Positions 4,343-53,350 of a stretch of 64,000 nucleotides of DNA are shown here, in pieces. Source of the stretch: Phycisphaerae bacterium (GTDB taxonomy: Bacteria; Planctomycetota; Phycisphaerae; SM23-33); NCBI GenBank assembly GCA_049975485.1, contig JBNGDC010000001.1, positions 144,996 to 208,995 on the forward strand, read 5' to 3'. The stretch's first letter is position 1. Each line of letters begins with the position of its first letter. The position numbers and the translations under genes are program-made. Under the pieces are notes generated by a model, which was not told the DNA's origin, did no database searches, and was given only the letters and a program-made list of their open reading frames with translations.

Positions 4343-6892
4343 ATGGAGAGACCCTTGAACCGAAACGGCCTTTTTACCCGGTATGCCTGCATAGTAGCCG
4401 TTGTGCTCGTGACCGTATCGGTGTCCTGGACGCAGAACGCGTCACCCGTTGAGGTCGAAGACGGCTTTGCCCAACGTTTCGAGGCCGGCAAGCTCTGGCG
4501 CGACGGCGTCGATATGGCGATGGAGGGGGACTTCTCCGCCGCCTTGCAGAAGGTGCGCAGGGCGGCCGAGATAGACCCCGACGACGAGTACATCGCCGCC
4601 GGCGTGGAGTGCCTGGATGAGTATGTATCCCGGCGGGAGCGGTTCGAGACCGAGCGACGGCTGGAATACTCCGATGCCGTCCGTCGCGTTCGCAGGGGCA
4701 TGCTTGCCCAGGAGTATCTGCCCAAGCTTGCCGCCGCCGAGCTGCATGAGCCCCTGCGCAAGAAGGTCGAGCAGGCCATCATCGAGCAGTACAACTCCGT
4801 CAACAGCGCTTCATCGCTTGATGAGCTTTCCGAGCAGGAGGCGCTGGATCTCAGGTCCGAAGTCATCGCCGTAACGGAGAAGATGTCGGCCGGTGTGGAC
4901 CAGGCCGTCGCCATGCTCGACGGCGACGACAGTGAATACGCCCGTCAGTTCGCCGAGGCCGCCGAAGAAGTCTCCTACTACATTCGGGTGTACCGCAACG
5001 GCTGGCGGGGCGTGCGGCTTGAATCCGCCGACGACCGCGCAAAGGCCGCCGATGTCCTGGCGGAGGTGGAGGACAAACTGGCAGACGCTATCTCCGAGCT
5101 GGAGATGATGGTGGATAAAAAGCCCTGGCGGCGGGCGCTGTCGCAGGGAATCCTGGCGAGAGAGCTGCACCGCAAGGACAACGGCCCGCTTGACGGGAAG
5201 GATTGGTACAACGAGTTGATAGCCCTTGCGGAGGAGCACGCCGAGCAGGCCGTCGCCGACGCCGAGTGGTACGACGCAGCCGCCGCGTACAGCGGCCTGG
5301 AGGAGTTGACCGGCGGCAACGGTCTCTACGAGCAGCAGATGGATCAGGGCCGCAGGCACGTTAGGGTGCTGGGGCTGTATGGCGAGGGCAACCCCGAGAG
5401 CGATACCCAGCCGGTGGATAACACCTGGCAGGAACTGGTAGCCGGCGCCGACGCGAACATGGTTCGCGAGGCCATCCAGCGCCTGGACCAGTATTACGTT
5501 GAGGCGGTGGACTATCGGGACCTGGCGAACGGCGCGCTGCTGGCGATGGAGGTGCTCGCGGATACGCCGCAAGCGGCCGAGAGCTTCGAGACGCTCAACG
5601 ATGAGGAGAAACGTCAGCAGTTCCTCAGCGCCATAAGGAGCATGCGGGAGAACATCGCCGACAAGCAGCAGGTAGGCACGCTGGACCTGCTGTTCATGCT
5701 GAATCACGTGCTGAGGGAATCCGACCGCAGCGTAAAGCTTCCGGCCGAGGTCATCGCCGTGGAGTTCGCCGACGGGATGCTCAACGAACTGGACAAGTTC
5801 AGCTCGATGATCTGGCCGCACGACCTGGCCGACTTCGAAAAGCACACGCGCGGGCATTTCTACGGCGTCGGCATCCAGATTACCAAGGAGATCGGCGAGC
5901 CGCTGGAAGTGGTGACCCCGCTGGCGGGCACGCCGGCGTATCGGGCCGGCATCAAGCCGGGCGACGTCATCATCGCCGTGGACGGCCGCCGCACCGAGGA
6001 CCTGGGCATAGACAAGCTCGTGAGAATGATCATGGGCGAGGAGGGCACGCGAGTGACGCTGAGAATAGAGCGTCCCGGGCGTGTCAAGCCGTTCGACGTG
6101 ACACTCACGCGCGACAAGATCACCATCCGGACGGTCAAGGGCTGGCAGCGTGTGAACGACGAGGGCTGGCAGTACCTGGTGGGCCAGACCGACGGTGTCG
6201 GCTACGTGCGGTGCAGCCAGTTCAGCGAGCAGACGGTAGAGGAGCTTACCGAGGCGCTGGAGCAGGTCAACGGCGACGAAGTGGACGCCCTGGTGCTTGA
6301 CTTGCGGTGGAACCCCGGCGGGCTGCTCAGCTCGGCCGTCGAGGTCGCCGACGAGTTCCTCAATGACCACCGCAGGATAGTCTCCACCAAAGGTCGCCAG
6401 GCGCGCTACGAGGAGCGGTCGGCCAGCCCAAGGGGCGAGTATCTCGACAAACCGCTGGTGGTGCTGGTGAACGACGCCAGTGCATCGGCCGCCGAGATCG
6501 TCGCCGGCGCCCTGCAGGACTGGGACCGGGCCATCGTGGTCGGCGAGCGGACCTACGGAAAGGGCAGCGTCCAGCACGTAATCCGCATACGTCCCGAACG
6601 GTCCATGCTGAAGCTGACCACCGCCTACTACTACCTGCCGCATGGCCGGCTGCTGCACAGGGTCAACGGCAAGGACGAGTGGGGCGTGGCCCCGGATATC
6701 GAGGTCCTGATGACTCCCGAGCAGACCCGCCGCTGGCTGGAGCTGCGACGGGAGACCGACCTTATTCAGGATATCGAGCCGGAAGAACTGAACCGCGAGC
6801 TGTCCAGGCAGTACGAGGCCGACCTGCAGCTACAGACCGCCGTCGTGCTGCTGAAGCTGATGCGACTGGACGAGCAACGCTCCGCGGCTTAG
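4343..6892 (+). CDS. S41 family C-terminal processing peptidase with PDZ domain and a long N-terminal extension
   Basis: The C-terminal half has a PDZ (GIKPGDVIIAVDG) and an S41 core (LDLRWNPGGLL, VVLVNDASASAAEIVAGALQD, GERTYGKGSVQ). There is an N-terminal signal/TM segment, and about 450 aa of Ala/Glu-rich helical sequence precede the protease. Confidence 0.8.
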   Translation: MERPLNRNGLFTRYACIVAVVLVTVSVSWTQNASPVEVEDGFAQRFEAGKLWRDGVDMAMEGDFSAALQKVRRAAEIDPDDEYIAAGVECLDEYVSRRERFETERRLEYSDAVRRVRRGMLAQEYLPKLAAAELHEPLRKKVEQAIIEQYNSVNSASSLDELSEQEALDLRSEVIAVTEKMSAGVDQAVAMLDGDDSEYARQFAEAAEEVSYYIRVYRNGWRGVRLESADDRAKAADVLAEVEDKLADAISELEMMVDKKPWRRALSQGILARELHRKDNGPLDGKDWYNELIALAEEHAEQAVADAEWYDAAAAYSGLEELTGGNGLYEQQMDQGRRHVRVLGLYGEGNPESDTQPVDNTWQELVAGADANMVREAIQRLDQYYVEAVDYRDLANGALLAMEVLADTPQAAESFETLNDEEKRQQFLSAIRSMRENIADKQQVGTLDLLFMLNHVLRESDRSVKLPAEVIAVEFADGMLNELDKFSSMIWPHDLADFEKHTRGHFYGVGIQITKEIGEPLEVVTPLAGTPAYRAGIKPGDVIIAVDGRRTEDLGIDKLVRMIMGEEGTRVTLRIERPGRVKPFDVTLTRDKITIRTVKGWQRVNDEGWQYLVGQTDGVGYVRCSQFSEQTVEELTEALEQVNGDEVDALVLDLRWNPGGLLSSAVEVADEFLNDHRRIVSTKGRQARYEERSASPRGEYLDKPLVVLVNDASASAAEIVAGALQDWDRAIVVGERTYGKGSVQHVIRIRPERSMLKLTTAYYYLPHGRLLHRVNGKDEWGVAPDIEVLMTPEQTRRWLELRRETDLIQDIEPEELNRELSRQYEADLQLQTAVVLLKLMRLDEQRSAA

Positions 6893-7017
6893 AAGCGGAC
6901 GACGACGAAACTATTGAGGGTGCCCAATAATTCGTGGCAAGTGTCTTGAATACCTGTGACAGTACTGGAGAACTATTTGGGGGCGATAGGTATATTCCGG
7001 TGCCGCACAACACTGTC

Positions 7018-7099
7018 GCCCCTTCGGGGCTGAGTGCATTATTGCCCCGGACTTCCGGGGGCTGACGCCCCCGGCTATTTCCTGTCGGCCCTTCGGGCC
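7018..7099. other. cluster of GC-rich tetraloop hairpins between convergent genes
   Basis: GCCCC-TTCG-GGGC (7018-7030), CCCCGG-ACTT-CCGGGG (7045-7060), GGGGGC-TGAC-GCCCCC (7057-7072, overlapping the previous one) and GGCCC-TTCG-GGCC (7087-7099). No U-tracts follow. Confidence 0.4.
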
Positions 7100-7182
7100 T
7101 GTTGTGATGCACATGCACTGACTGTCAGCCGGCTCAAGTATGCGTTCGAAGTATTGGGCATCCTCAAACTATTAATCGCAAG

Positions 7183-7869
7183 CTACGGTCCCTCCGCCTC
7201 CCTCAGTGCGCGGGCGAAGTCGGCGTTCTCGGGTTTCTTCAGGAGTTGCTGGAATTCGTCTTCGGACACGCGGTCCGTGCTGCCGTCGGAGGTCAGCACA
7301 TTGCGATAGTCCTCGTGGTTGCCTCGCAGGTCGCACATCACCAAAGTGTGGGGTGGCGCATCCGGCGCGGGCGGATGATAGAAATAGTCGCTCCGGCGGT
7401 CGGACACGGCCGAGGGACATCGAAAAATATCCCGATCGTAAAGGTAACGCTCCTCTACCAGGATGTCCAGGTCCGCCGGGAAGTGGTCGTCATATTCGAA
7501 TGAGTATTCATCCATGGCCCTGGCTATGGCCGACAGGTTCGTCAGGCAAACTATTCTCCGGGCCTGTTCTCTGGTTCGCGAAAGCACAGGTAGCATGAGG
7601 GCAGGCATAACCACGGTGGGCAGCAGAAGACCCAGCACGATACCGGCAACGGCCATGCCTGTCCTGGGGCGCTTCTGCACCAGTGAGACGATTCCCAGGA
7701 CCACGGCCGTCAGCCCCAGAGCCGCACCGAGTATCGGGATGACGGCGGTAATGCCGAAGATCAGGGCCGCCAGGGGCAGCCCACGGCCCGTGTTGCGTCT
7801 GTAGGACGGTGTTCCGTGTATCGGTGGTGGCGTCTGCTGCGGGGGCTGTTGAGGTGGAATCTGCGACAT
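7183..7869 (-). CDS. membrane protein: Pro/Gln-rich N-terminus, DUF4190-like two-TM anchor, DUF1559-like (planctomycete pseudopilin-type) C-domain
   Basis: LAALIFGITAVIPILGAALGLTAVVLGIVSLVQKRPRTGMAVAGIVLGLLLP is the DUF4190 pattern. RIVCLTNLSAIARAMDEY and RGNHEDYRNVLTSDGS resemble DUF1559 core motifs. The C-terminal 24 aa (EFQQLLKKPENADFARALREAEGP) are identical to the downstream paralog. Confidence 0.55.
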   Translation of the reverse strand: MSQIPPQQPPQQTPPPIHGTPSYRRNTGRGLPLAALIFGITAVIPILGAALGLTAVVLGIVSLVQKRPRTGMAVAGIVLGLLLPTVVMPALMLPVLSRTREQARRIVCLTNLSAIARAMDEYSFEYDDHFPADLDILVEERYLYDRDIFRCPSAVSDRRSDYFYHPPAPDAPPHTLVMCDLRGNHEDYRNVLTSDGSTDRVSEDEFQQLLKKPENADFARALREAEGP

Positions 7870-7907
7870 TGCTGTTCTCCCATTCTGTTTGTCCGGCCGC
7901 TGGGAAG

Positions 7908-8573
7908 CTACGGTCCTTCCGCTTCTCTCAGCGCGCGGGCGAAGTCGGCGTTCTCCGGTTTCTTCAGCAGCTGCTGGAACTCCTGCTCGCTGACCATACG
8001 GACTTTGCCGTTGGCGTGGACCACATTGCGTCCGCTACGGTGGTTGCCTCGCCAGTCGCATGCCAGAAGTGTCATCGGCGAAGCGTCGTCGGCAGGCGGA
8101 TGGTAGAAGTAATCCGACTCTCTCGGGCTTTGTGACAGAGGGCAGCGAATGCTGTCCGGCCCCAGAAGATCCTCATCGATGAGGACCTGCAGGTTGCCTG
8201 GCCAGACGTCCGAATAATCAGTCCTATAGATGTTCGCCGCTTCGGCGATGGTACGAAGGTTGGCACCACAGGTTATTTCTTTCGCAAGCTCTTTGGCTTC
8301 CTGCCTGGCCTGGTATATCTCAACCGTAACGGTTGTCGTCAGAGTGGGCAGTGCGAAGCCCAACACAAGCCCAGCTATGGCCATGCCCCGTCTTGGTCGC
8401 TTCTGCACCAGCGAGACGATACCCAGTGCGATTGCTGCCAGACCCGGTAATACGCCTGCGAAAGGAATGACCGCAAAGATTCCGAGAATAAGTGCCGCCT
8501 TGGGTGGCCCCTTGCCCTTCTTAAGCCGGTAATGCGAAGGGCCCCGCGCAGGTTGAGGCGGAGTCCGGCTCAT
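7908..8573 (-). CDS. paralog of 7183-7869 (DUF4190 anchor plus DUF1559-like domain)
   Basis: It has the same architecture (ALILGIFAVIPFAGVLPGLAAIALGIVSLVQKRPRRGMAIAGLVLG; ITCGANLRTIAEAANIY; RGNHRSGRNVVHANGKV). The 3-prime 80 nt are nearly identical in DNA to 7183-7262. Confidence 0.55.
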   Translation of the reverse strand: MSRTPPQPARGPSHYRLKKGKGPPKAALILGIFAVIPFAGVLPGLAAIALGIVSLVQKRPRRGMAIAGLVLGFALPTLTTTVTVEIYQARQEAKELAKEITCGANLRTIAEAANIYRTDYSDVWPGNLQVLIDEDLLGPDSIRCPLSQSPRESDYFYHPPADDASPMTLLACDWRGNHRSGRNVVHANGKVRMVSEQEFQQLLKKPENADFARALREAEGP

Positions 8574-8701
8574 GTCAGTTCTCCCATAGGTCAGATTCGT
8601 CAGCCCTGCGTCCGGAAACGCGCTACCAGACTTGGCCCGCGGCGCGAAATCAGCCCCATGTGCCGCACATACAAATAAGTACCAAGTTCGGTGGGGCTTG
8701 T

Positions 8702-10513
8702 CTATCCGCGTTTCTCGTCGTCGCGCTGCTCATCCGGTGGTGGCGGCGGAGGTGTTTGCGGTCCCTGCTCATGGGGCGAAGACTCGCTTTGCTGTTCGCC
8801 GCCTTGTTGTGCAGGTGGAGGGGGAACCCGCCGGGCGTCCACGACGGCGGTCCGCCCGAGCACGTCGCCTATCCGCTGGCGGTAGGGGTTGAACAGCGGC
8901 CAGAGCAGCAGCACCGGGATCGGCAGCAGCCAGAGCGTCTCGATGACCTTCGAGATGTTCCGCAGCAGCACCCCCCGCAGGTCGGGGCGCCGGCCGTTGT
9001 TGCCGCAGACGCGCAGCCCCAGCGCCATCTTGCCCAGCGTCGCCGAGAAGCGAAGCTCCATGAACACGCAGTAGGCGATGAACAGCAGGATCACCGAAAT
9101 CAGCACGTACGCGGACTCCGCCGTCATGGAGTATTCCTGCGCGGTGGTCCATATGTTCTCCACGTCGCGCATCTGTTCCAGCGGAACCTGTGTCACCATC
9201 AGCACCCCGCCGAGAAGATGGAAGGGCAGGGCGTCGATGGCGGCGGCCGCCAGACGCTTCGTCAGCGCCCCCGGCCGGAGTGTCTGGGGCAGCGTGAAGA
9301 TCCTGTCCGTCGATTTCGGCCTGAGGAATAGCAGCGGCACGAACATCGCGATTGCGATGCCCCACATGAAATACTCCATGATGGCCTGACCGCTGGTGTC
9401 CGGCGGCTGCCGGGCGAAGATGTCCAACTCGCCCCGCAAGACGGACCGGCCGCTGGTGTCGGACGTAATCAGCACGTACTTGCCGTCGATGCCGGCAACC
9501 ACGGCCACCTGGTCGCCGAGTCGCGACGCCAGGGGCGTTCTGTCGGCGTCGATGGTGAGTTCCTGCTCATCCATCCGCAGCGGCTGGACGCTCATCTGCT
9601 CATCCGCCCGCCAGGTGGCAAGGAGCAGCCGTTTCTTGCCGGTCTGTTCGTCGTCAACGGTCAGTACTATGCGCGGCCGCCCGGTGAGAGTGAGCATGCC
9701 GGCGACGTGGGCGGCGGAGGCCGTTTCGCCCAGCGGCAGCTCCCGCCAGTCTTCCTGCTGCGCTGAAACGAAGAGGCGATTCGGCCGGCCGTCGGTCGGC
9801 GCCAGCAGGACGTACATCAGCCCGTCGGCGACCGTGGCGAAGACACGGCCGTTCTCCGTAGCGATATCACCCAGCCAGTGCCACTGACTGCCGCGACTCT
9901 GAAAGACACCCAGCCGGATGTGTGTCGGCTCCCGGGGTTCGGCAGGGGCGGTTGTCGTAGTCGGGTGCTCGTCGGCGGGGGCCGTCGCGGTGGTGGTGTC
10001 CGCCCCGGCAGGGGCGGTGGAGGAGGTGGTGGGTTCTCTGACCGGCAGCGCGACCACGGCGGCCACCGAGCCGGAGTTACCGCCGTGCAGTCCCTCCGCC
10101 CGGCACATCGCCAGCGGGCGAGCGTCTTCGTCCCATCGCTCGTGCGACGGATATGGCAGTATGGTCCGCTCGCCGTCGATGGTGTAAAGCTGATAAGCGC
10201 GAGGGTCCGCCAGCAGCAGCTGCAACTGCGGGCCTGTCGCCACACCGGCGGCCGGCGGCTCGGTGAGTTTTTCACGCGCAACATAACGTGCGGCCCACTC
10301 CCACTTTTCGCCGGCGGGCCGGACTACCACGCCATAGCGGCCTTCGCTGTCGGGGTGGACAAGCCAGAGGGCATGCTCATTGCCGGTGAGTATGCTCGGT
10401 CGCTCAGCCGCGGCGGTAGTGGTGGCGTCTTCACCGTCGGAGGCGGCCACACACGCACCGGCGGCCGCGATGCACAGCAGCGTCGATATGGTACGAACAC
10501 GCCGCAAGCTCAC
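8702..10513 (-). CDS. RDD-family membrane protein with a large N-terminal extracytoplasmic domain
   Basis: N-terminal signal peptide. The C-terminal region has a multi-TM RDD signature (RLAAAAIDALPF...YRQRIGDVLGRTAVVD) and a Pro/Gln/Glu-rich tail. Its start overlaps the upstream gene stop by 4 nt. Confidence 0.6.
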   Translation of the reverse strand: MSLRRVRTISTLLCIAAAGACVAASDGEDATTTAAAERPSILTGNEHALWLVHPDSEGRYGVVVRPAGEKWEWAARYVAREKLTEPPAAGVATGPQLQLLLADPRAYQLYTIDGERTILPYPSHERWDEDARPLAMCRAEGLHGGNSGSVAAVVALPVREPTTSSTAPAGADTTTATAPADEHPTTTTAPAEPREPTHIRLGVFQSRGSQWHWLGDIATENGRVFATVADGLMYVLLAPTDGRPNRLFVSAQQEDWRELPLGETASAAHVAGMLTLTGRPRIVLTVDDEQTGKKRLLLATWRADEQMSVQPLRMDEQELTIDADRTPLASRLGDQVAVVAGIDGKYVLITSDTSGRSVLRGELDIFARQPPDTSGQAIMEYFMWGIAIAMFVPLLFLRPKSTDRIFTLPQTLRPGALTKRLAAAAIDALPFHLLGGVLMVTQVPLEQMRDVENIWTTAQEYSMTAESAYVLISVILLFIAYCVFMELRFSATLGKMALGLRVCGNNGRRPDLRGVLLRNISKVIETLWLLPIPVLLLWPLFNPYRQRIGDVLGRTAVVDARRVPPPPAQQGGEQQSESSPHEQGPQTPPPPPPDEQRDDEKRG

Positions 10514-24959: not shown

Positions 24960-25532
24960 ATGACCGGACAGCCCGACACGCCGTCGCCGCAGCACGAGGT
25001 GCTGCTGTGCGTTACGGGGGGTATTGCGTGCTACAAGTCGGCGGACCTGGCGAGCAAGCTGGTGGCCGACGGCTTTGGCGTGACGGTGGCGATGAGTGAG
25101 GCGGCCGAGAGGTTTGTCGCGCCGCTTACGTTCCAGACGCTCACGCGGCGACGGGTTTACACCTCGCTGTGGCAGTCCACGGAGCAGTATGAATCCACGC
25201 ATATCTCAACGTCGGACCTTGCGGAGCTGATGATAGTCGCGCCGGCGACGGCGGACACTATCGCCAAGCTGGCGACAGGCCTGGCCGACGATATTGTCTC
25301 CACGCTGCTGCTGGCCCGCCCGGCCGATTGCCCGCTGCTGCTGGCGCCGGCCATGAACACGCGCATGTGGCAGGCGCCGCCGACCCAGGCCAACATCGAA
25401 AAGCTCAAGGGCTGGGGCGTGCATACGGTAGGCCCGGCCGAGGGGCGGCTTGCATGCGGCGACACGGGACCCGGCAGAATGGCCGAGCCGGCGGACATAC
25501 TCGCCGCAGCCAAAAAGCTTCTGAGCGGGTAG
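24960..25532 (+). CDS. coaC: phosphopantothenoylcysteine decarboxylase (flavoprotein, CoaC half of CoaBC)
   Basis: LLCVTGGIACYK, MIVAPATADTIAKLATGLADD and PAMNTRMW motifs. It is encoded separately from coaB. Confidence 0.85.
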   Translation: MTGQPDTPSPQHEVLLCVTGGIACYKSADLASKLVADGFGVTVAMSEAAERFVAPLTFQTLTRRRVYTSLWQSTEQYESTHISTSDLAELMIVAPATADTIAKLATGLADDIVSTLLLARPADCPLLLAPAMNTRMWQAPPTQANIEKLKGWGVHTVGPAEGRLACGDTGPGRMAEPADILAAAKKLLSG

Positions 25533-26130: not shown

Positions 26131-26763
26131 ATGCGGATACTCGTAACAGCCGGTCCCACGCGCGAGCCGATCGACTCGGTTCGGTTCATCACCAACGCCT
26201 CCAGCGGACGCATGGGCTGCGCGGTGGCGTCGGCCGCTGTCGAAGCGGGTCACGACGTGACGCTTCTGCTCGGTCCGTGCCCGGCCGAGCCGCCCGCCGG
26301 CTGCGAGGTGCTACGCTTTATGACGGCCGCGGAACTGAAGCGACTGCTTGAAGAGCACTTCCCCGCCTGCGACGCGCTGGTGATGGCGGCGGCCGTTGGA
26401 GACTTCACGCCCGAAAGACCGGCCGTTGGCAAGCTGCGGCGTTCGTCGGGACCGGTGGAGCTTCGACTGCTGCCTACCGACGACCTGCTCGCCGGCGTTG
26501 CCGCAGGCAAACGACCGGGTCAGAGAATCGTCGCCTTTGCCGTGGAAGCCGGCGACGAGGACGCGATGTCCGCCGCGGCCAGGCGCAAGCTCACCGCCAA
26601 GGGGGCCGATTTCATCGTGGTCAACTCTCCGGAGGCAATGAGCGCCGAGACCAGCCGTGCAGCCATCCTCACCGCCGACGATGTCCTGCTGCCCTGGGGC
26701 GAGCGGACCAAAACGGAGCTGGCGGCGGAGATAGTCAAACTACCGGCGACGGGCGGGAATTGA
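26131..26763 (+). CDS. coaB: phosphopantothenate--cysteine ligase (CoaB half of CoaBC)
   Basis: ILVTAGPTREPIDSVRFITNASSGRMG, AAAVGDF, KADFIV-type motifs. It sits 600 bp downstream of coaC, with hicAB in between. Confidence 0.8.
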   Translation: MRILVTAGPTREPIDSVRFITNASSGRMGCAVASAAVEAGHDVTLLLGPCPAEPPAGCEVLRFMTAAELKRLLEEHFPACDALVMAAAVGDFTPERPAVGKLRRSSGPVELRLLPTDDLLAGVAAGKRPGQRIVAFAVEAGDEDAMSAAARRKLTAKGADFIVVNSPEAMSAETSRAAILTADDVLLPWGERTKTELAAEIVKLPATGGN

Positions 26764-36092: not shown

Positions 36093-37520
36093 ATGAGCGT
36101 ACTGACAAACGGCAGACGTGGCGTGGCTCGTAAGAAGCTGTACGATTTTTATAAGGAAGTCATTACGCCCAATGAGCACCTGAACCGGGGTATCGTCAGC
36201 TTTCAGGGGAATAAGCGGGAGCCGTTTTACCGGTGGTTTAAGTACAAGGAGGGGTTTTCCTCTCATCTAGTAGCGTATTTCCTTCAGTCCACAGGTTTAT
36301 CCGAAGGGACATTACTCGATCCGTTCGCCGGCGCGGGTACGTCGTTGTTCGCAGCTCGGGATTCCGGATGGCGGGCCTTGGGAATCGAATTGCATCCTGT
36401 GCCGCTTTTCGCGATAGAGGCACGTCTTGCTGGAGAATCCCTCGACGGGGCCCGCTTCAACCTGGCGGTCGAGAGGGTGGAGAACAGGGCGTACGAGAGA
36501 CAGCCGGAAGATAAACCGGGTTTTCCGCACCTTAACATCACCAGTGGCGCTTTCCCGCCCTTAAACGAGCAACGTCTTATGGCCTACTGGCATTACTGCC
36601 TGAGTCATGTGAAAGACCCGAGTGTGCGGAAGGTCCTGCAGTTTGCCGCGCTTTGTGTACTGGAGGATATAAGCTATACGAGGAAGGACGGTCAGTACTT
36701 GCGATGGGATGCTCGAAGTCCGAAAAAACGCGGTAAAGGCGCGTTTATCAAAGGGCAGATCGCTGATTTTCACGACGCAATCACGGCAAAGCTACGGATT
36801 ATCAGCTCGGACCTGAGGACCTTGTCCGGCAGCGGGCATTTGTTCAGGCCGACCAGACTGACACGCGGTCCGGTGGATATGTGGGAGGGGTCCTGCCTGA
36901 ATGTGCTTCCCGAAATGTCTTCGGATTCGGTGGACCTGGTTGTCACTTCGCCTCCTTACTGCAACCGCTATGACTATACGCGGACCTACGCCCTGGAGCT
37001 TGCATTACTCGGGCGAAACGAAGAGCAGGTGAAAGGGCTGAGGCAATCCCTTCTTTCCTGCACCGTTGAGAATCGCGCCAAGCGCGAGCAGATTAAGACG
37101 GCTTACGAAGCCCGGTCGGGGCGTGAGGCGTTTGATTTTGTAGAGCAATGCTTTGATTCGGTGGATGCATTGCATGAAGTGCTGGAGATTCTCGAAAGTT
37201 TCGGAAGGGACAATGCTCTCAATAACACAAATATCCCGCGAATGGTGCGGAATTATTTCTACGAGATGAGCTTCGTTATCTACGAGCTTGCTCGTGTTAT
37301 GCGGGCTGAAGGAAAGGTAGTTATGGTTAACGACAACGTTCGCTACGCCGGCGAGGAGGTGCCGGTTGACCTGATTCTGAGCGAACTTGCTCGACAGATG
37401 GGCTTTACCGTGGATAAGATATGGGTTCTGTCCAGAGGTAAGGGTAATAGCAGTCAACAGATGGGAATACATGGGCGAAGAGAGCTGCGAAAGTGCGTAT
37501 ATGTGTGGCAAAAGGAGTAA
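36093..37520 (+). CDS. site-specific DNA amino-methyltransferase (N6-A or N4-C), alpha-class motif order
   Basis: Motif I DPFAGAGTSLFAA (aa 77) and motif IV VVTSPPYCNRYDY (aa 289), with about 200 aa between them (candidate TRD). It lies in a low-GC island. Confidence 0.75.
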   Translation: MSVLTNGRRGVARKKLYDFYKEVITPNEHLNRGIVSFQGNKREPFYRWFKYKEGFSSHLVAYFLQSTGLSEGTLLDPFAGAGTSLFAARDSGWRALGIELHPVPLFAIEARLAGESLDGARFNLAVERVENRAYERQPEDKPGFPHLNITSGAFPPLNEQRLMAYWHYCLSHVKDPSVRKVLQFAALCVLEDISYTRKDGQYLRWDARSPKKRGKGAFIKGQIADFHDAITAKLRIISSDLRTLSGSGHLFRPTRLTRGPVDMWEGSCLNVLPEMSSDSVDLVVTSPPYCNRYDYTRTYALELALLGRNEEQVKGLRQSLLSCTVENRAKREQIKTAYEARSGREAFDFVEQCFDSVDALHEVLEILESFGRDNALNNTNIPRMVRNYFYEMSFVIYELARVMRAEGKVVMVNDNVRYAGEEVPVDLILSELARQMGFTVDKIWVLSRGKGNSSQQMGIHGRRELRKCVYVWQKE

Positions 37521-37560
37521 GCACACCCGTGCAACTATGGACGGCGGAGAGAGGTAAAGG

Positions 37561-38532
37561 ATGAGTAACGGGCCCCCCGGCTGCGATGACCAGTTGATTA
37601 AGGCGTTAACCGCTGCCTATACGGCTCGATCCAAACTTTTTCACGAAGGCGTGAGAAGCTGCAATATTGACCTGCTGATAGCGGAGATCGACGCTCTGGA
37701 TTCAGAGAGCTTGTGCTGGGATTTGGGTACTGTGGGAATCTCGGCGACGTCATGGAAGAAAGTGAAGGAAAGTGGAGCCGTTCCGGAGCAGGTCTTTGTT
37801 CATCCGGATGTGATCGTGAAGAACCCGTCCCTGATCGCCTACTACCGGAACATGGCGACCATATCAAACAAGGGGATGGGTCAGCTATTGTTCTCGACCA
37901 TCGGGTATGAGAAGGGCTCGGGTCGGCAGATCGGGCGGGACCGTGCCGAGGAGTTAAGCCGCGTGCTTAACGGAATCATATCCAACGTAATAGACTCGGT
38001 GGCCGACTACGACGTGCAGGTTAGCCGTAAGGCAATCCTAGCCGAAATCGGCGCCCAGCTTCAGGGCACTTGGGCGAATTTGATAGGTCAGGGGGCGACA
38101 AACCAAGTGGAGCAGATAATTCGGGATCACATCGAGCGGCAGGATCGCGGCAGTCGCATCGAATCAGGTAGGTATCATCTGTCAAACGAATGGAAAATCA
38201 TCTTTGGTACCGAACCGGACGTTGCGTTCTTTGACAAAGATGGTCTATTGCGAATGGCAATCGAGATAAAAGGCAGCCTCGACAAGGCCGGTGCACAAAC
38301 GCGCTATGGAGAAGCCAAAAAGTCGTTTGCCAAGGCAATCAAAGAGAACCCGCGCTGCCATACGATTTATCTTGCTTCTTGTTTCACAGAGGCCGTCGTG
38401 GAGCAAATCAAGGCGGATGGGCAGGTCCGTGAGTGGTTCAACCTGACGTCGATTCTATACGACGATGGCGAGCGAGCCCATTTTCTCGAATCGGTTTTTC
38501 ATGTTGTTGATGCGCCATATCGTACCGGCTGA
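37561..38532 (+). CDS. putative type II restriction endonuclease (PD-(D/E)xK-like), partner of the upstream MTase
   Basis: 323 aa. VAFFDKDGLLRMAIEIKGS contains a D...EIK catalytic-like motif. There is no other homology. It is co-directional with the MTase, 40 bp downstream, and has the same low GC. Confidence 0.45.
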   Translation: MSNGPPGCDDQLIKALTAAYTARSKLFHEGVRSCNIDLLIAEIDALDSESLCWDLGTVGISATSWKKVKESGAVPEQVFVHPDVIVKNPSLIAYYRNMATISNKGMGQLLFSTIGYEKGSGRQIGRDRAEELSRVLNGIISNVIDSVADYDVQVSRKAILAEIGAQLQGTWANLIGQGATNQVEQIIRDHIERQDRGSRIESGRYHLSNEWKIIFGTEPDVAFFDKDGLLRMAIEIKGSLDKAGAQTRYGEAKKSFAKAIKENPRCHTIYLASCFTEAVVEQIKADGQVREWFNLTSILYDDGERAHFLESVFHVVDAPYRTG

Positions 38533-52558: not shown

Positions 52559-53350
52559 TTACCAGAAGAAACGGGCCCCGCGATGGGTAAAGCGGTGCTC
52601 CAGGTCTTCGGGCTCGGTCCAGATGACCCCGCCGGTGATCAGTCCCACGTGTGAGCCGGTAGGCCAGAGCCGGTCGTAAAGGTGATTGGCGCCCCAGCGG
52701 TCGGCGTCCCAGGTGGTAATCCAGTTGCCGTCGCCGAGCTGACGGTTCATGTCCGTCCAGAGGAAATCGTAATAGCTGTCGTCGTACAGGTTCACAGGGA
52801 ACAGCGGCTTGCCGGTGTTCGGGGGGTCGAACATCCAGTTCTTCAGGTCGTGCTGGAGCCGTGGATCTCCACCCCAGCAGAAATACCCGATTACGGTGGA
52901 CCATCCCTCGGAATCGTTTTCCGGTTCCCAGAAGTCGTCCCGATTCCATGCCGGGTTCGTGGGCGAGTAGAACATCTTCCGCTGGACGTTGTAGTTCTCG
53001 ATCATCAGGTCGCGGTAGTACGTGCTGATCCAGTAAACGACCTGGTGTTCATTGACGTCCACTTCCGGATTATGCGACATCTGCGGCAGACGGCCGTCGT
53101 GGCTGTCGGCATACATGTGAAAGGCCGTCACCAGGTTCCTGATGTTGGTGGCGCAGATGGTCTCCCGGGCGATTCGCTTGGCCTGTCCCAGAGCGGGCAT
53201 GAGTATGCTCATCAACAGCGCGATAATGGCTATGACGACCAGAAGCTCGATAAGCGTAAAGGCCCCGGCCATCCGTCTTCTCCGGAGGGCATTTCCCGGC
53301 TTCGCGGCGGCTGTATGGCTACGCACGTTGGATGACTGATAATCTGACAT
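52559..53350 (-). CDS. prepilin-type N-terminal cleavage/methylation domain protein (DUF1559-like pseudopilin)
   Basis: GAFTLIELLVVIAIIALLMSILMPAL is a class III signal. The C-terminal HVGLITGGVIW resembles the DUF1559 terminal motif. The leader may start at an internal Met (MAGAF). Confidence 0.7.
   Translation of the reverse strand: MSDYQSSNVRSHTAAAKPGNALRRRRMAGAFTLIELLVVIAIIALLMSILMPALGQAKRIARETICATNIRNLVTAFHMYADSHDGRLPQMSHNPEVDVNEHQVVYWISTYYRDLMIENYNVQRKMFYSPTNPAWNRDDFWEPENDSEGWSTVIGYFCWGGDPRLQHDLKNWMFDPPNTGKPLFPVNLYDDSYYDFLWTDMNRQLGDGNWITTWDADRWGANHLYDRLWPTGSHVGLITGGVIWTEPEDLEHRFTHRGARFFW

Follow-up and report, generated by a model that had tools for sequence, protein, structure and literature searches.

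DUF1559 (SBP_bac_10, PF07596) is among the largest paralog families of the Planctomycetota and has so far been viewed only as a family of prepilin-type proteins. Planctopirus limnophila carries 68 copies, two of which are essential (PMC10632474). DUF1559 proteins, together with those of TIGR04294, are found in Planctomycetota, Verrucomicrobiota and Lentisphaerota and combine a periplasmic pilin-like fold with many paralogs per genome. Proteins of a different family, DUF4190 (PF13828), are common in Actinomycetota and often carry a zinc ribbon and a Pro-rich N-terminus. Here we describe two adjacent genes, A and B, whose products join elements of both families. They occupy positions 7183-8573, on the minus strand, of a 64,000-nucleotide stretch of contig JBNGDC010000001.1 from a Phycisphaerae bacterium (GCA_049975485.1); this whole stretch is referred to below as the window. 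We consider it likely, if not assured, that A and B encode non-cleaved, non-polymerizing, membrane-tethered periplasmic modules with a pilin fold (DUF1559/H-X9-DG) and that they were duplicated long ago. Both domains are known, and their combination is already present in automatic annotation, under the names "DUF4190 domain-containing protein", "prepilin-type processing-associated H-X9-DG protein" and "competence protein ComGC". In the literature searched, no description was found of a coherent and fairly large leaderless DUF1559 subfamily, with its conserved helical tail and its recurrent tandem arrays.

A reading of the window made from sequence only (hereafter the sequence-only reading) had proposed a tandem of paralogs at this site, each combining a DUF4190 membrane anchor with a DUF1559-like pseudopilin domain, and two minus-strand open reading frames (ORFs) are found exactly there, separated by 38 nt. 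Their products are 54% identical (BLASTP, E 9e-77) and end in the same 24 residues, EFQQLLKKPENADFARALREAEGP. The N-terminus of A is rich in Pro and Gln (MSQIPPQQPPQQTPPP), and the equivalent segment of B is shorter. The core motifs quoted in that reading are also present: C108 of A and C101 of B stand inside 'C..NL..IA.A..Y', and 'RGNH' opens the H-X9-DG motif of A and the H-X9-NG variant of B. An identical protein to A is recorded at NCBI from a Phycisphaerae metagenome-assembled genome (MAG), under the name "DUF4190 domain-containing protein". The public NCBI version of B (ACP5HU_00640, 158 aa) begins at the internal Met64, by which the entire DUF4190 part is lost. We prefer the long start of B (221 aa), because a Shine-Dalgarno-like box is common to both genes, residues 1-63 are homologous to A, and the DUF4190 match of B spans the annotated start. 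Purifying selection between the two, this common box, and orthologous arrays in other Phycisphaerae MAGs argue that A and B are real genes. The G+C content of the window is 63%; at third codon positions (GC3) it is 0.72 in A and 0.65 in B, versus 0.81-0.88 in the flanking genes, a difference that low expression or relaxed selection on codons may explain.

Profile searches match both domains in both proteins, in each case just below the Pfam gathering cut-off (35 bits for DUF4190 and 23.3 bits for DUF1559). DUF4190 scores 24.1 bits in A (residues 33-83) and 33.3 bits in B (residues 26-75), while DUF1559 scores 21.2 bits in A and 18.6 bits in B. The DUF1559 matches are co-linear and cover just the two ends of the 268-position model, with positions 3-35 falling on residues 99-132 of A and positions 233-263 on residues 166-196 of B. 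DUF4190 is matched in eight of ten close members, and a number of relatives exceed the cut-offs: P0046 (38.0 bits), P0050 (35.7 bits), P0008 (50.8 bits) and P0009 (45.6 bits) for DUF4190, and P0050 (24.8 bits), P0053 (83.5 bits) and P0104 (69.4 bits) for DUF1559, the latter two being matches of the family profile at E <= 1e-39. P0009 is above both cut-offs, with a DUF1559 score of 38.6 bits. When compared by hhalign, the N-terminal profile of the family matched the actinobacterial DUF4190 proteins P0015 (98.2%, E 5e-14) and P0016 (97.6%), values that low-complexity membrane composition may inflate, and the C-terminal 133-residue profile matched P0009 (96.8%, E 2e-10) over 116 columns, including the helix Cys, CPS and H-X9-DG. 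The hybrid architecture that had been proposed is thus borne out by the Pfam and hhalign matches. NCBIfam returned nothing useful for A or B, and a PDB sequence search with A gave chance membrane matches only (E >= 0.18). The gene at 52559-53350 (minus strand), which the sequence-only reading had cited as a canonical prepilin-led DUF1559 protein, does have the prepilin leader, with AFTLIE at residue 30 and an N_methyl score of 26.1 bits, but its match to DUF1559 is only weak (14.3 bits, E 0.043). In hhalign, its product aligns with the A/B head at 87%, over the part from alpha1-C to CPS only.

AlphaFold2 (AF2) models of A and B, built on a 32-sequence alignment, reached pLDDT values of 85 and 86, respectively, and exceeded 90 throughout the head. 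The two models agree in showing a short hairpin and a helix of 56-58 residues, hydrophobic over its first third, which is followed by a loop that includes two short helices, by four beta-strands and by two C-terminal helices. A long alpha1 packed on a four-stranded antiparallel beta-sheet, the arrangement of the type IV pilin fold, is predicted for both. Also present is the layout of DUF4190, in which a hydrophobic hairpin leads through a basic loop (QKRPRTG in A, QKRPRRG in B) to a next hydrophobic helix that opens with G-x-A-x-x-G. The spacing from Pro to Cys in the A/B family, "MLPVLSRTREQARRIVC", equals that in the prepilin-type gene at 52559-53350, "LMPALGQAKRIARETIC". This equality argues that the second half of the pilin alpha1-N has been kept, and that just the first half, with the cleavage site, has been swapped for the DUF4190 module. 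The N-terminal tail has three Lys/Arg residues in A and seven in B, with no acidic residues, and the loop of A has three more Lys/Arg. By the positive-inside rule, the N-terminus and the basic loop are predicted to be cytoplasmic and the head to be periplasmic. As for the cleavage signal, a regular expression for the prepilin site (G|F-T-L-I-E) found none in A, B, 30 relatives or a set of 176 relatives, the latter comprising proteins among the matches listed by the profile search as well as relatives found earlier. The same expression picks up AFTLIE in the product of 52559-53350. The prepilin family N_methyl (PF07963) has no match in A or B, and no pilus or type II secretion system (T2SS) machinery was found among the 28 window proteins scanned. 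The absence of a cleavable prepilin signal from these N-termini, on which the sequence-only reading depended, is supported by these scans.

The family to which A and B belong is a large one. A word-indexed search returned 35 close clusters, nearly all of them 190-235 aa in length and possessing the layout and tail of A and B, and an exhaustive profile search of clusters at 50% identity gave at least 222 representatives at E <= 1e-30, 2,430 at E <= 1e-10 and 38,412 at E <= 1e-3. All named sources are Phycisphaerae or Planctomycetota MAGs. A scan of a genome collection with one peptide pattern gave nine loci, a number that undercounts the family. Among the 176 relatives, the commonest architecture is a Pro-rich segment followed by DUF4190 and the head, and three hydrophobic spans are seen in 63 proteins. 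The head and tail also occur after a zinc ribbon plus DUF4190 (as in the zinc-ribbon, DUF4190 and DUF1559-like relatives P0008-P0014 and P0050), after a single transmembrane (TM) helix, after anchors of 4-5 TM helices, and after soluble N-domains of ~300 aa without TM helices. This variety of anchors and soluble domains implies that the head works without pilin processing. In P0068, P0144, P0155 and P0174, the head stands at the C-terminus after such a ~300-aa soluble N-domain, with no preceding membrane helix. In P0053, P0058, P0095 and P0104 (700-1100 aa), the minimal head is present as 2-3 internal copies, with additional matches to DUF3352 in P0053 and P0104. Members of the family often stand in tandem arrays of 2-5 copies. 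For instance, a Planctomycetota MAG (L008, 3975-8078) has five copies, every one ending in PENA[AD]FAAALRAAEGP, and further arrays occur in L001 (1703-4277, four copies), L004, L005, L010 and L014.

Across 174 aligned domains, the conserved positions (numbered as in A) are C108, Y122, C151-P152, Y162-F163-Y164, C179-D180, N184-H185, R189, F206, L210, P213, N215, F218-A219 and L222. H185 is kept in 167 and R189 in 169 of the 174; family-wide, the H-X9-DG motif retains its His in 96%, its Asp in 55% and its Gly in 63%. C108 and C151 are retained jointly in 162/174 domains and, on this account, are likely to be joined by a disulfide, which would hold the alpha-beta loop against alpha1. C179, by contrast, is Tyr or Phe in 18/174 domains and Ile or His in two more. 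Since only these residues replace it, the position is taken to be buried and structural, and a catalytic or metal-binding role for C179 is unlikely given the Tyr/Phe replacements.

The sequence-only reading had taken the shared C-terminus and about 80 nt of near-identical 3' DNA as pointing to recent duplication or gene conversion. The similarity is real, but it amounts to 87% identity over 85 nt (7180-7264 versus 7905-7989), reaching ~6 nt beyond the stop codon, and a recent origin is not supported by comparison at the DNA level. By the Nei-Gojobori method, A and B differ with a dN of 0.44 and a dS of ~1.8, which is saturated, giving a dN/dS of ~0.24. The 24 tail codons hold eight synonymous differences (of ~16.5 sites) and no non-synonymous ones (of 55.5 sites), from which it follows that their identity is maintained by selection and that any conversion is old. 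Across genomes, the tail is the most conserved segment, with an identity of 0.58 versus 0.32 for the core; F206, L210, P213, N215, F218, A219 and L222 are its family-wide conserved residues, and 'KKPENADFARALREAEGP' is also found in P0032 and P0039 from other assemblies. The N-terminal part of A is 61% identical to a 233-aa gene of L001, the last of its array, versus 54% to B, so that A and B were probably duplicated before these genomes diverged. Judged by these codon comparisons, purifying selection is the main cause of the identical tails, to which an old conversion event or co-evolution may have added. We give little credence to the rival account, in which recent duplication or recent conversion explains both the identical C-termini and the similar 3' DNA. 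In its favor, the proportion of synonymous differences (pS) is lower in the tail (0.48) than elsewhere in the gene (0.60-0.79), the repeat continues past the stop codon, and there are real tracts in relatives. In the L002 pair, 91% of codons in the -60 to -25 region are identical. In L001, the 185- and 174-aa genes, which have lost the DUF4190 anchor and have one or two other membrane helices instead, carry a conversion or partial-duplication tract in codons -60 to -25 (97% nucleotide identity over 36 codons). Moreover, at a core identity of 0.3-0.5, tail identity is 0.73-0.79 within one genome versus 0.58-0.64 between genomes, the window pair being the extreme case (core 0.48, tail 0.96); this likeness is in keeping with a common partner or with concerted evolution long ago. 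Set against these points are the saturated dS of the whole gene, a tail dS of ~0.78, which makes any conversion old, the closer likeness of the N-terminus of A to the L001 gene, and the conservation of the tail in every family member. Recent gene conversion in the window pair is rejected on the basis of the synonymous divergence.

Other explanations concern what the proteins do. A and B could be cryptic prepilins, in which the DUF4190 hairpin is an oversized leader that prepilin peptidase cuts after the conserved Gly of the basic loop (RTG|MAVAG) to yield a minor pilin or pseudopilin without E5, like GspK or PilX, that enters the fiber. Some minor pilins do lack Glu5. The pilin fold is present, the Pro-to-Cys spacing is that of the prepilin-type gene of the window, and the helix that comes after the basic loop and Gly is hydrophobic and roughly as long as pilin alpha1-N. 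We nevertheless hold this to be very improbable. The motif [GAS][FM..][TSA][LIVM].E occurs in 0/32 members and 0/176 relatives; several members have R, A, E or D in place of the loop Gly, and indels vary the length of the helix; 'G-x-G-[ML]-A-I-A-G' is a general signature of DUF4190, found in Actinobacteria too; the same head is joined to unrelated anchors or soluble domains; and none of the 28 window proteins scanned belongs to pilus or T2SS machinery. The neighborhood invites two further interpretations. Downstream and tail-to-tail with the array is a gene for a PDZ-containing S41 peptidase (4343-6892), and the conserved C-terminus could be a recognition tag for this convergent C-terminal-processing enzyme, with A and B as its substrates or regulators. 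Proteases of the Ctp/Tsp type bind C-termini through their PDZ domains, the constraint on the tail is very strong, and the tail-to-tail arrangement recurs in L001, L002 and L015. This adjacency, however, is confined to closely related and fully syntenic genomes, with no S41 neighbor in L003-L005 or L008-L014; the tail is predicted to form two well-packed helices (pLDDT 94-98), not a free peptide; and its final residues vary (GP, GE, GQ, GW, GR), with 5-30 extra C-terminal residues in several members. A role as a protease tag thus seems improbable to us. Upstream, on the same strand, are the gene of a 603-aa RDD-family protein (8702-10513), a 167-aa zinc-ribbon-like gene and a 312-aa gene, and A and B could be lineage-specific accessory subunits of a membrane complex encoded by these genes. 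The gap to the RDD gene is 128 nt and contains no promoter-like site in a scan that used the sigma-70 consensus only; the order of RDD gene and array is kept in L001 and L002; and L002 also has upstream 201- and 311-aa genes that match the 167- and 312-aa genes of the window. We regard such a complex as rather unlikely, since the arrangement is not conserved beyond the close group and the number of paralogs varies (2, 2, 4) beside a single RDD gene. More generally, the gene order is kept just in the close relatives L001/L007, L002 and L015, where the syntenic array comprises four genes in L001 (GCA_003551645.1), two genes in L002 and, in L015, a fragment at the end of a contig, and the context therefore yields no family-wide partner. 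Both the S41 peptidase and the RDD protein were rejected in that capacity, being absent in L003-L005 and L008-L014. Finally, almost no weight attaches to the idea that the ORFs are spurious or decaying pseudogenes. The lower GC3 and the shortened NCBI record of B might suggest it, but the dN/dS, the number of clusters at E <= 1e-30, the confident models and the Shine-Dalgarno-like box at both genes all speak against it, and the conservation data refute it.

Some observations also weigh against our own reading of A and B as tethered pilin-fold modules. Both proteins fall below both Pfam cut-offs, and NCBIfam TIGR04294 does not match A or B even at E <= 10 (it does match 2/32 relatives, with a best E-value of 3e-7). 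The DUF4190 loop 'K-R-P-R-T-G | M-A-V-A-G' superficially resembles a class III signal, that is, a basic leader, a Gly and a hydrophobic helix, which leaves a small chance of cleavage. L003-L005 and L008-L014 have unrelated neighbors, so no partner for the family as a whole emerges from the neighborhood. The topology, the non-cleavage, the disulfide and the binding site discussed below are predictions drawn from sequences and models. Lastly, the literature on DUF1559, DUF4190, H-X9-DG and planctomycete pseudopilins gives no functional study.

Under the tethered-module reading, which we continue to favor, the class III prepilin signal is missing and a DUF4190 module stands where the transmembrane helix of a pilin would begin. 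The module comprises a Pro-rich N-terminus, predicted to be cytoplasmic, the hydrophobic hairpin, the basic loop and a third span. In the models this span passes unbroken into the pilin alpha1-C, which is followed by the four-stranded sheet and then by the family-specific two-helix tail. Lacking the G/F...E5 site, the proteins would not be cut by a prepilin peptidase and would not be extracted from the membrane into a fiber, which suggests that they remain static, as periplasmic modules tethered to the membrane for binding or scaffolding. The polar and aromatic cluster of D161, Y162, Y164, D180, N184, H185, R189 and N190 is the likely site for a ligand or partner, and the strictly conserved tail, which stays alike between paralogs of the same genome, may be a structural or partner-docking element. 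A bolder and more tentative version, possible but not what we would expect, is that the pilin fold has been removed from the pilus system altogether. Leaderless DUF1559-type heads, permanently tethered by DUF4190 or other anchors, might then be periplasmic receptors (for example, of glycans) or docking and anchor subunits for cleavable DUF1559 pseudopilins, with the tail as the interface to a shared partner. The coordinates of the features of A and B are collected in Table 1.

Table 1. Features of genes A and B, with positions in the window and the basis for each assignment
Feature	Position	Strand	Description and basis
Gene A	7183-7869	minus	228 aa; in order, a Pro/Gln-rich N-terminal segment, the DUF4190-type hairpin, a TM3 that extends into a pilin-type alpha1 helix, the minimal head (DUF1559/H-X9-DG) and the tail of two helices
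Gene B	7908-8573	minus	221 aa; paralogous to A and built in the same way
DUF4190-type hydrophobic hairpin and basic loop QKRPRTG of A	7657-7779	minus	residues 31-71; AF2 helices 30-41 and 45-64; Pfam, hydropathy, K/R counts, hhalign
Predicted continuous TM3/alpha1-C helix of A, carrying 'MLPVLSRTREQARRIVCLTNL'	7495-7662	minus	residues 70-125; AF2 helix 70-125; Pfam DUF1559; amphipathic alpha1-C
H-X9-DG motif of A (H185 EDYRNVLTS D195 G196)	7282-7317	minus	residues 185-196, beta3-beta4 hairpin; read from the sequence; aligns with H-X9-DG of P0009
Two-helix C-terminal tail of A (SEDEFQQLLKKPENADFARALREAEGP)	7186-7263	minus	residues 203-228; AF2 helices 203-210 and 213-226, pLDDT 94-98; family-wide conservation
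Shine-Dalgarno-like box of A, ATGGGAGAAC	7874-7883	minus	4 nt 5' of the ATG of A; 10 nt, the same in front of B (alignment)
DUF4190-type hairpin and basic loop of B	8385-8507	minus	residues 23-63; Pfam 33.3 bits; AF2 helices 23-33 and 41-56
Predicted continuous TM3/alpha1 helix of B	8217-8390	minus	residues 62-119; AF2
H-X9-NG variant of B (H RSGRNVVHA NG)	8007-8042	minus	residues 178-189; sequence and Pfam DUF1559 match
Two-helix C-terminal tail of B	7911-7988	minus	residues 196-221, the last 24 as in A; BLASTP, AF2
Shine-Dalgarno-like box of B, ATGGGAGAAC	8578-8587	minus	4 nt 5' of the ATG of B; the same 10 nt as at A

Apart from A and B, a few features of the window may be recorded. The 290-nt gap between the stop codons of the S41 peptidase gene and A contains an Acido-Lenti-1 RNA motif (Rfam RF01687) at 7055-7100 on the plus strand, with a score of 57.7 bits versus a gathering threshold of 37 (E 8e-12). 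Its first hairpin also scores as terminator-like on the strand of the S41 gene. The region around the motif (6914-7167) is flanked by a 21-nt inverted repeat (6914-6934 and 7147-7167), unique in the window, and has a fold z of -5.4. The motif is absent at the syntenic loci of L001 and L002, where the gap is 111 and 10 nt, respectively, and a metagenome scan for the 21-nt inverted repeat gave no match. The region may be an inserted structured element. At 36093-38532 on the plus strand is a likely type II restriction-modification pair, composed of a fragment match to an N6/N4 DNA methylase and an XcyI-like endonuclease (78.8 bits), whose GC3 of 0.61-0.62 versus ~0.8 around it suggests horizontal acquisition. 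The domains of CoaC and CoaB type, usually fused in one coaBC gene, here occupy separate plus-strand ORFs, a flavoprotein (CoaC-like, 24960-25532) and a DFP protein (CoaB-like, 26131-26763), which are separated by ~600 nt that hold an ORF on the opposite strand.

In a family so far viewed only through its prepilin-type members, a compact leaderless subfamily suggests that the head can work alone at the membrane surface, without pilus assembly, with its core kept, a tail gained and several anchors in use. At ~130 aa, the head would provide a minimal construct for structural and binding studies, and with it a handle on the role of the H-X9-DG domain. There is a consequence for annotation as well, in that the label "DUF4190 domain-containing protein" conceals the pilin-like domain and gene B is shortened in the public record.

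With DUF1559 and TIGR04294 proteins, then, A and B share the alpha1-C motif 'LLPAL..ARE.ARR..C..NL..I..A...Y', the 'CPS' element, the C-terminal His-X9-(D/N)G hairpin, the periplasmic pilin-like fold and the multiplicity of paralogs. They differ in having no prepilin cleavage and methylation signal, being anchored by DUF4190 (or, in relatives, by other modules), and in lacking the central ~200 positions of the DUF1559 model, so that the head is just ~130 aa. They also have an extra conserved Cys-Asp before the His and an extra two-helix tail, 'EFQ..L..P.NA.FA.AL..AEG'. Compared with type IV pilins and T2SS pseudopilins, such as Thermus thermophilus PilA4 (6xxd), Vibrio cholerae EpsG (4lw9) and Klebsiella oxytoca PulG (5wda), they are without G(-1), F(+1) and E(+5), and processing, methylation and polymerization are not expected. 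Two extra membrane helices lie on the N-terminal side, C-terminal helices replace the D-region, and no assembly genes are nearby among the window proteins scanned. With the DUF4190 proteins of Actinomycetota, A and B have in common the Pro-rich N-terminus, the Gly-rich hairpin, the basic loop and the helix start 'G.A.AG..LG'; what sets them apart is that the module is fused in-frame, inside a membrane helix, to a pilin-type alpha1 and head.

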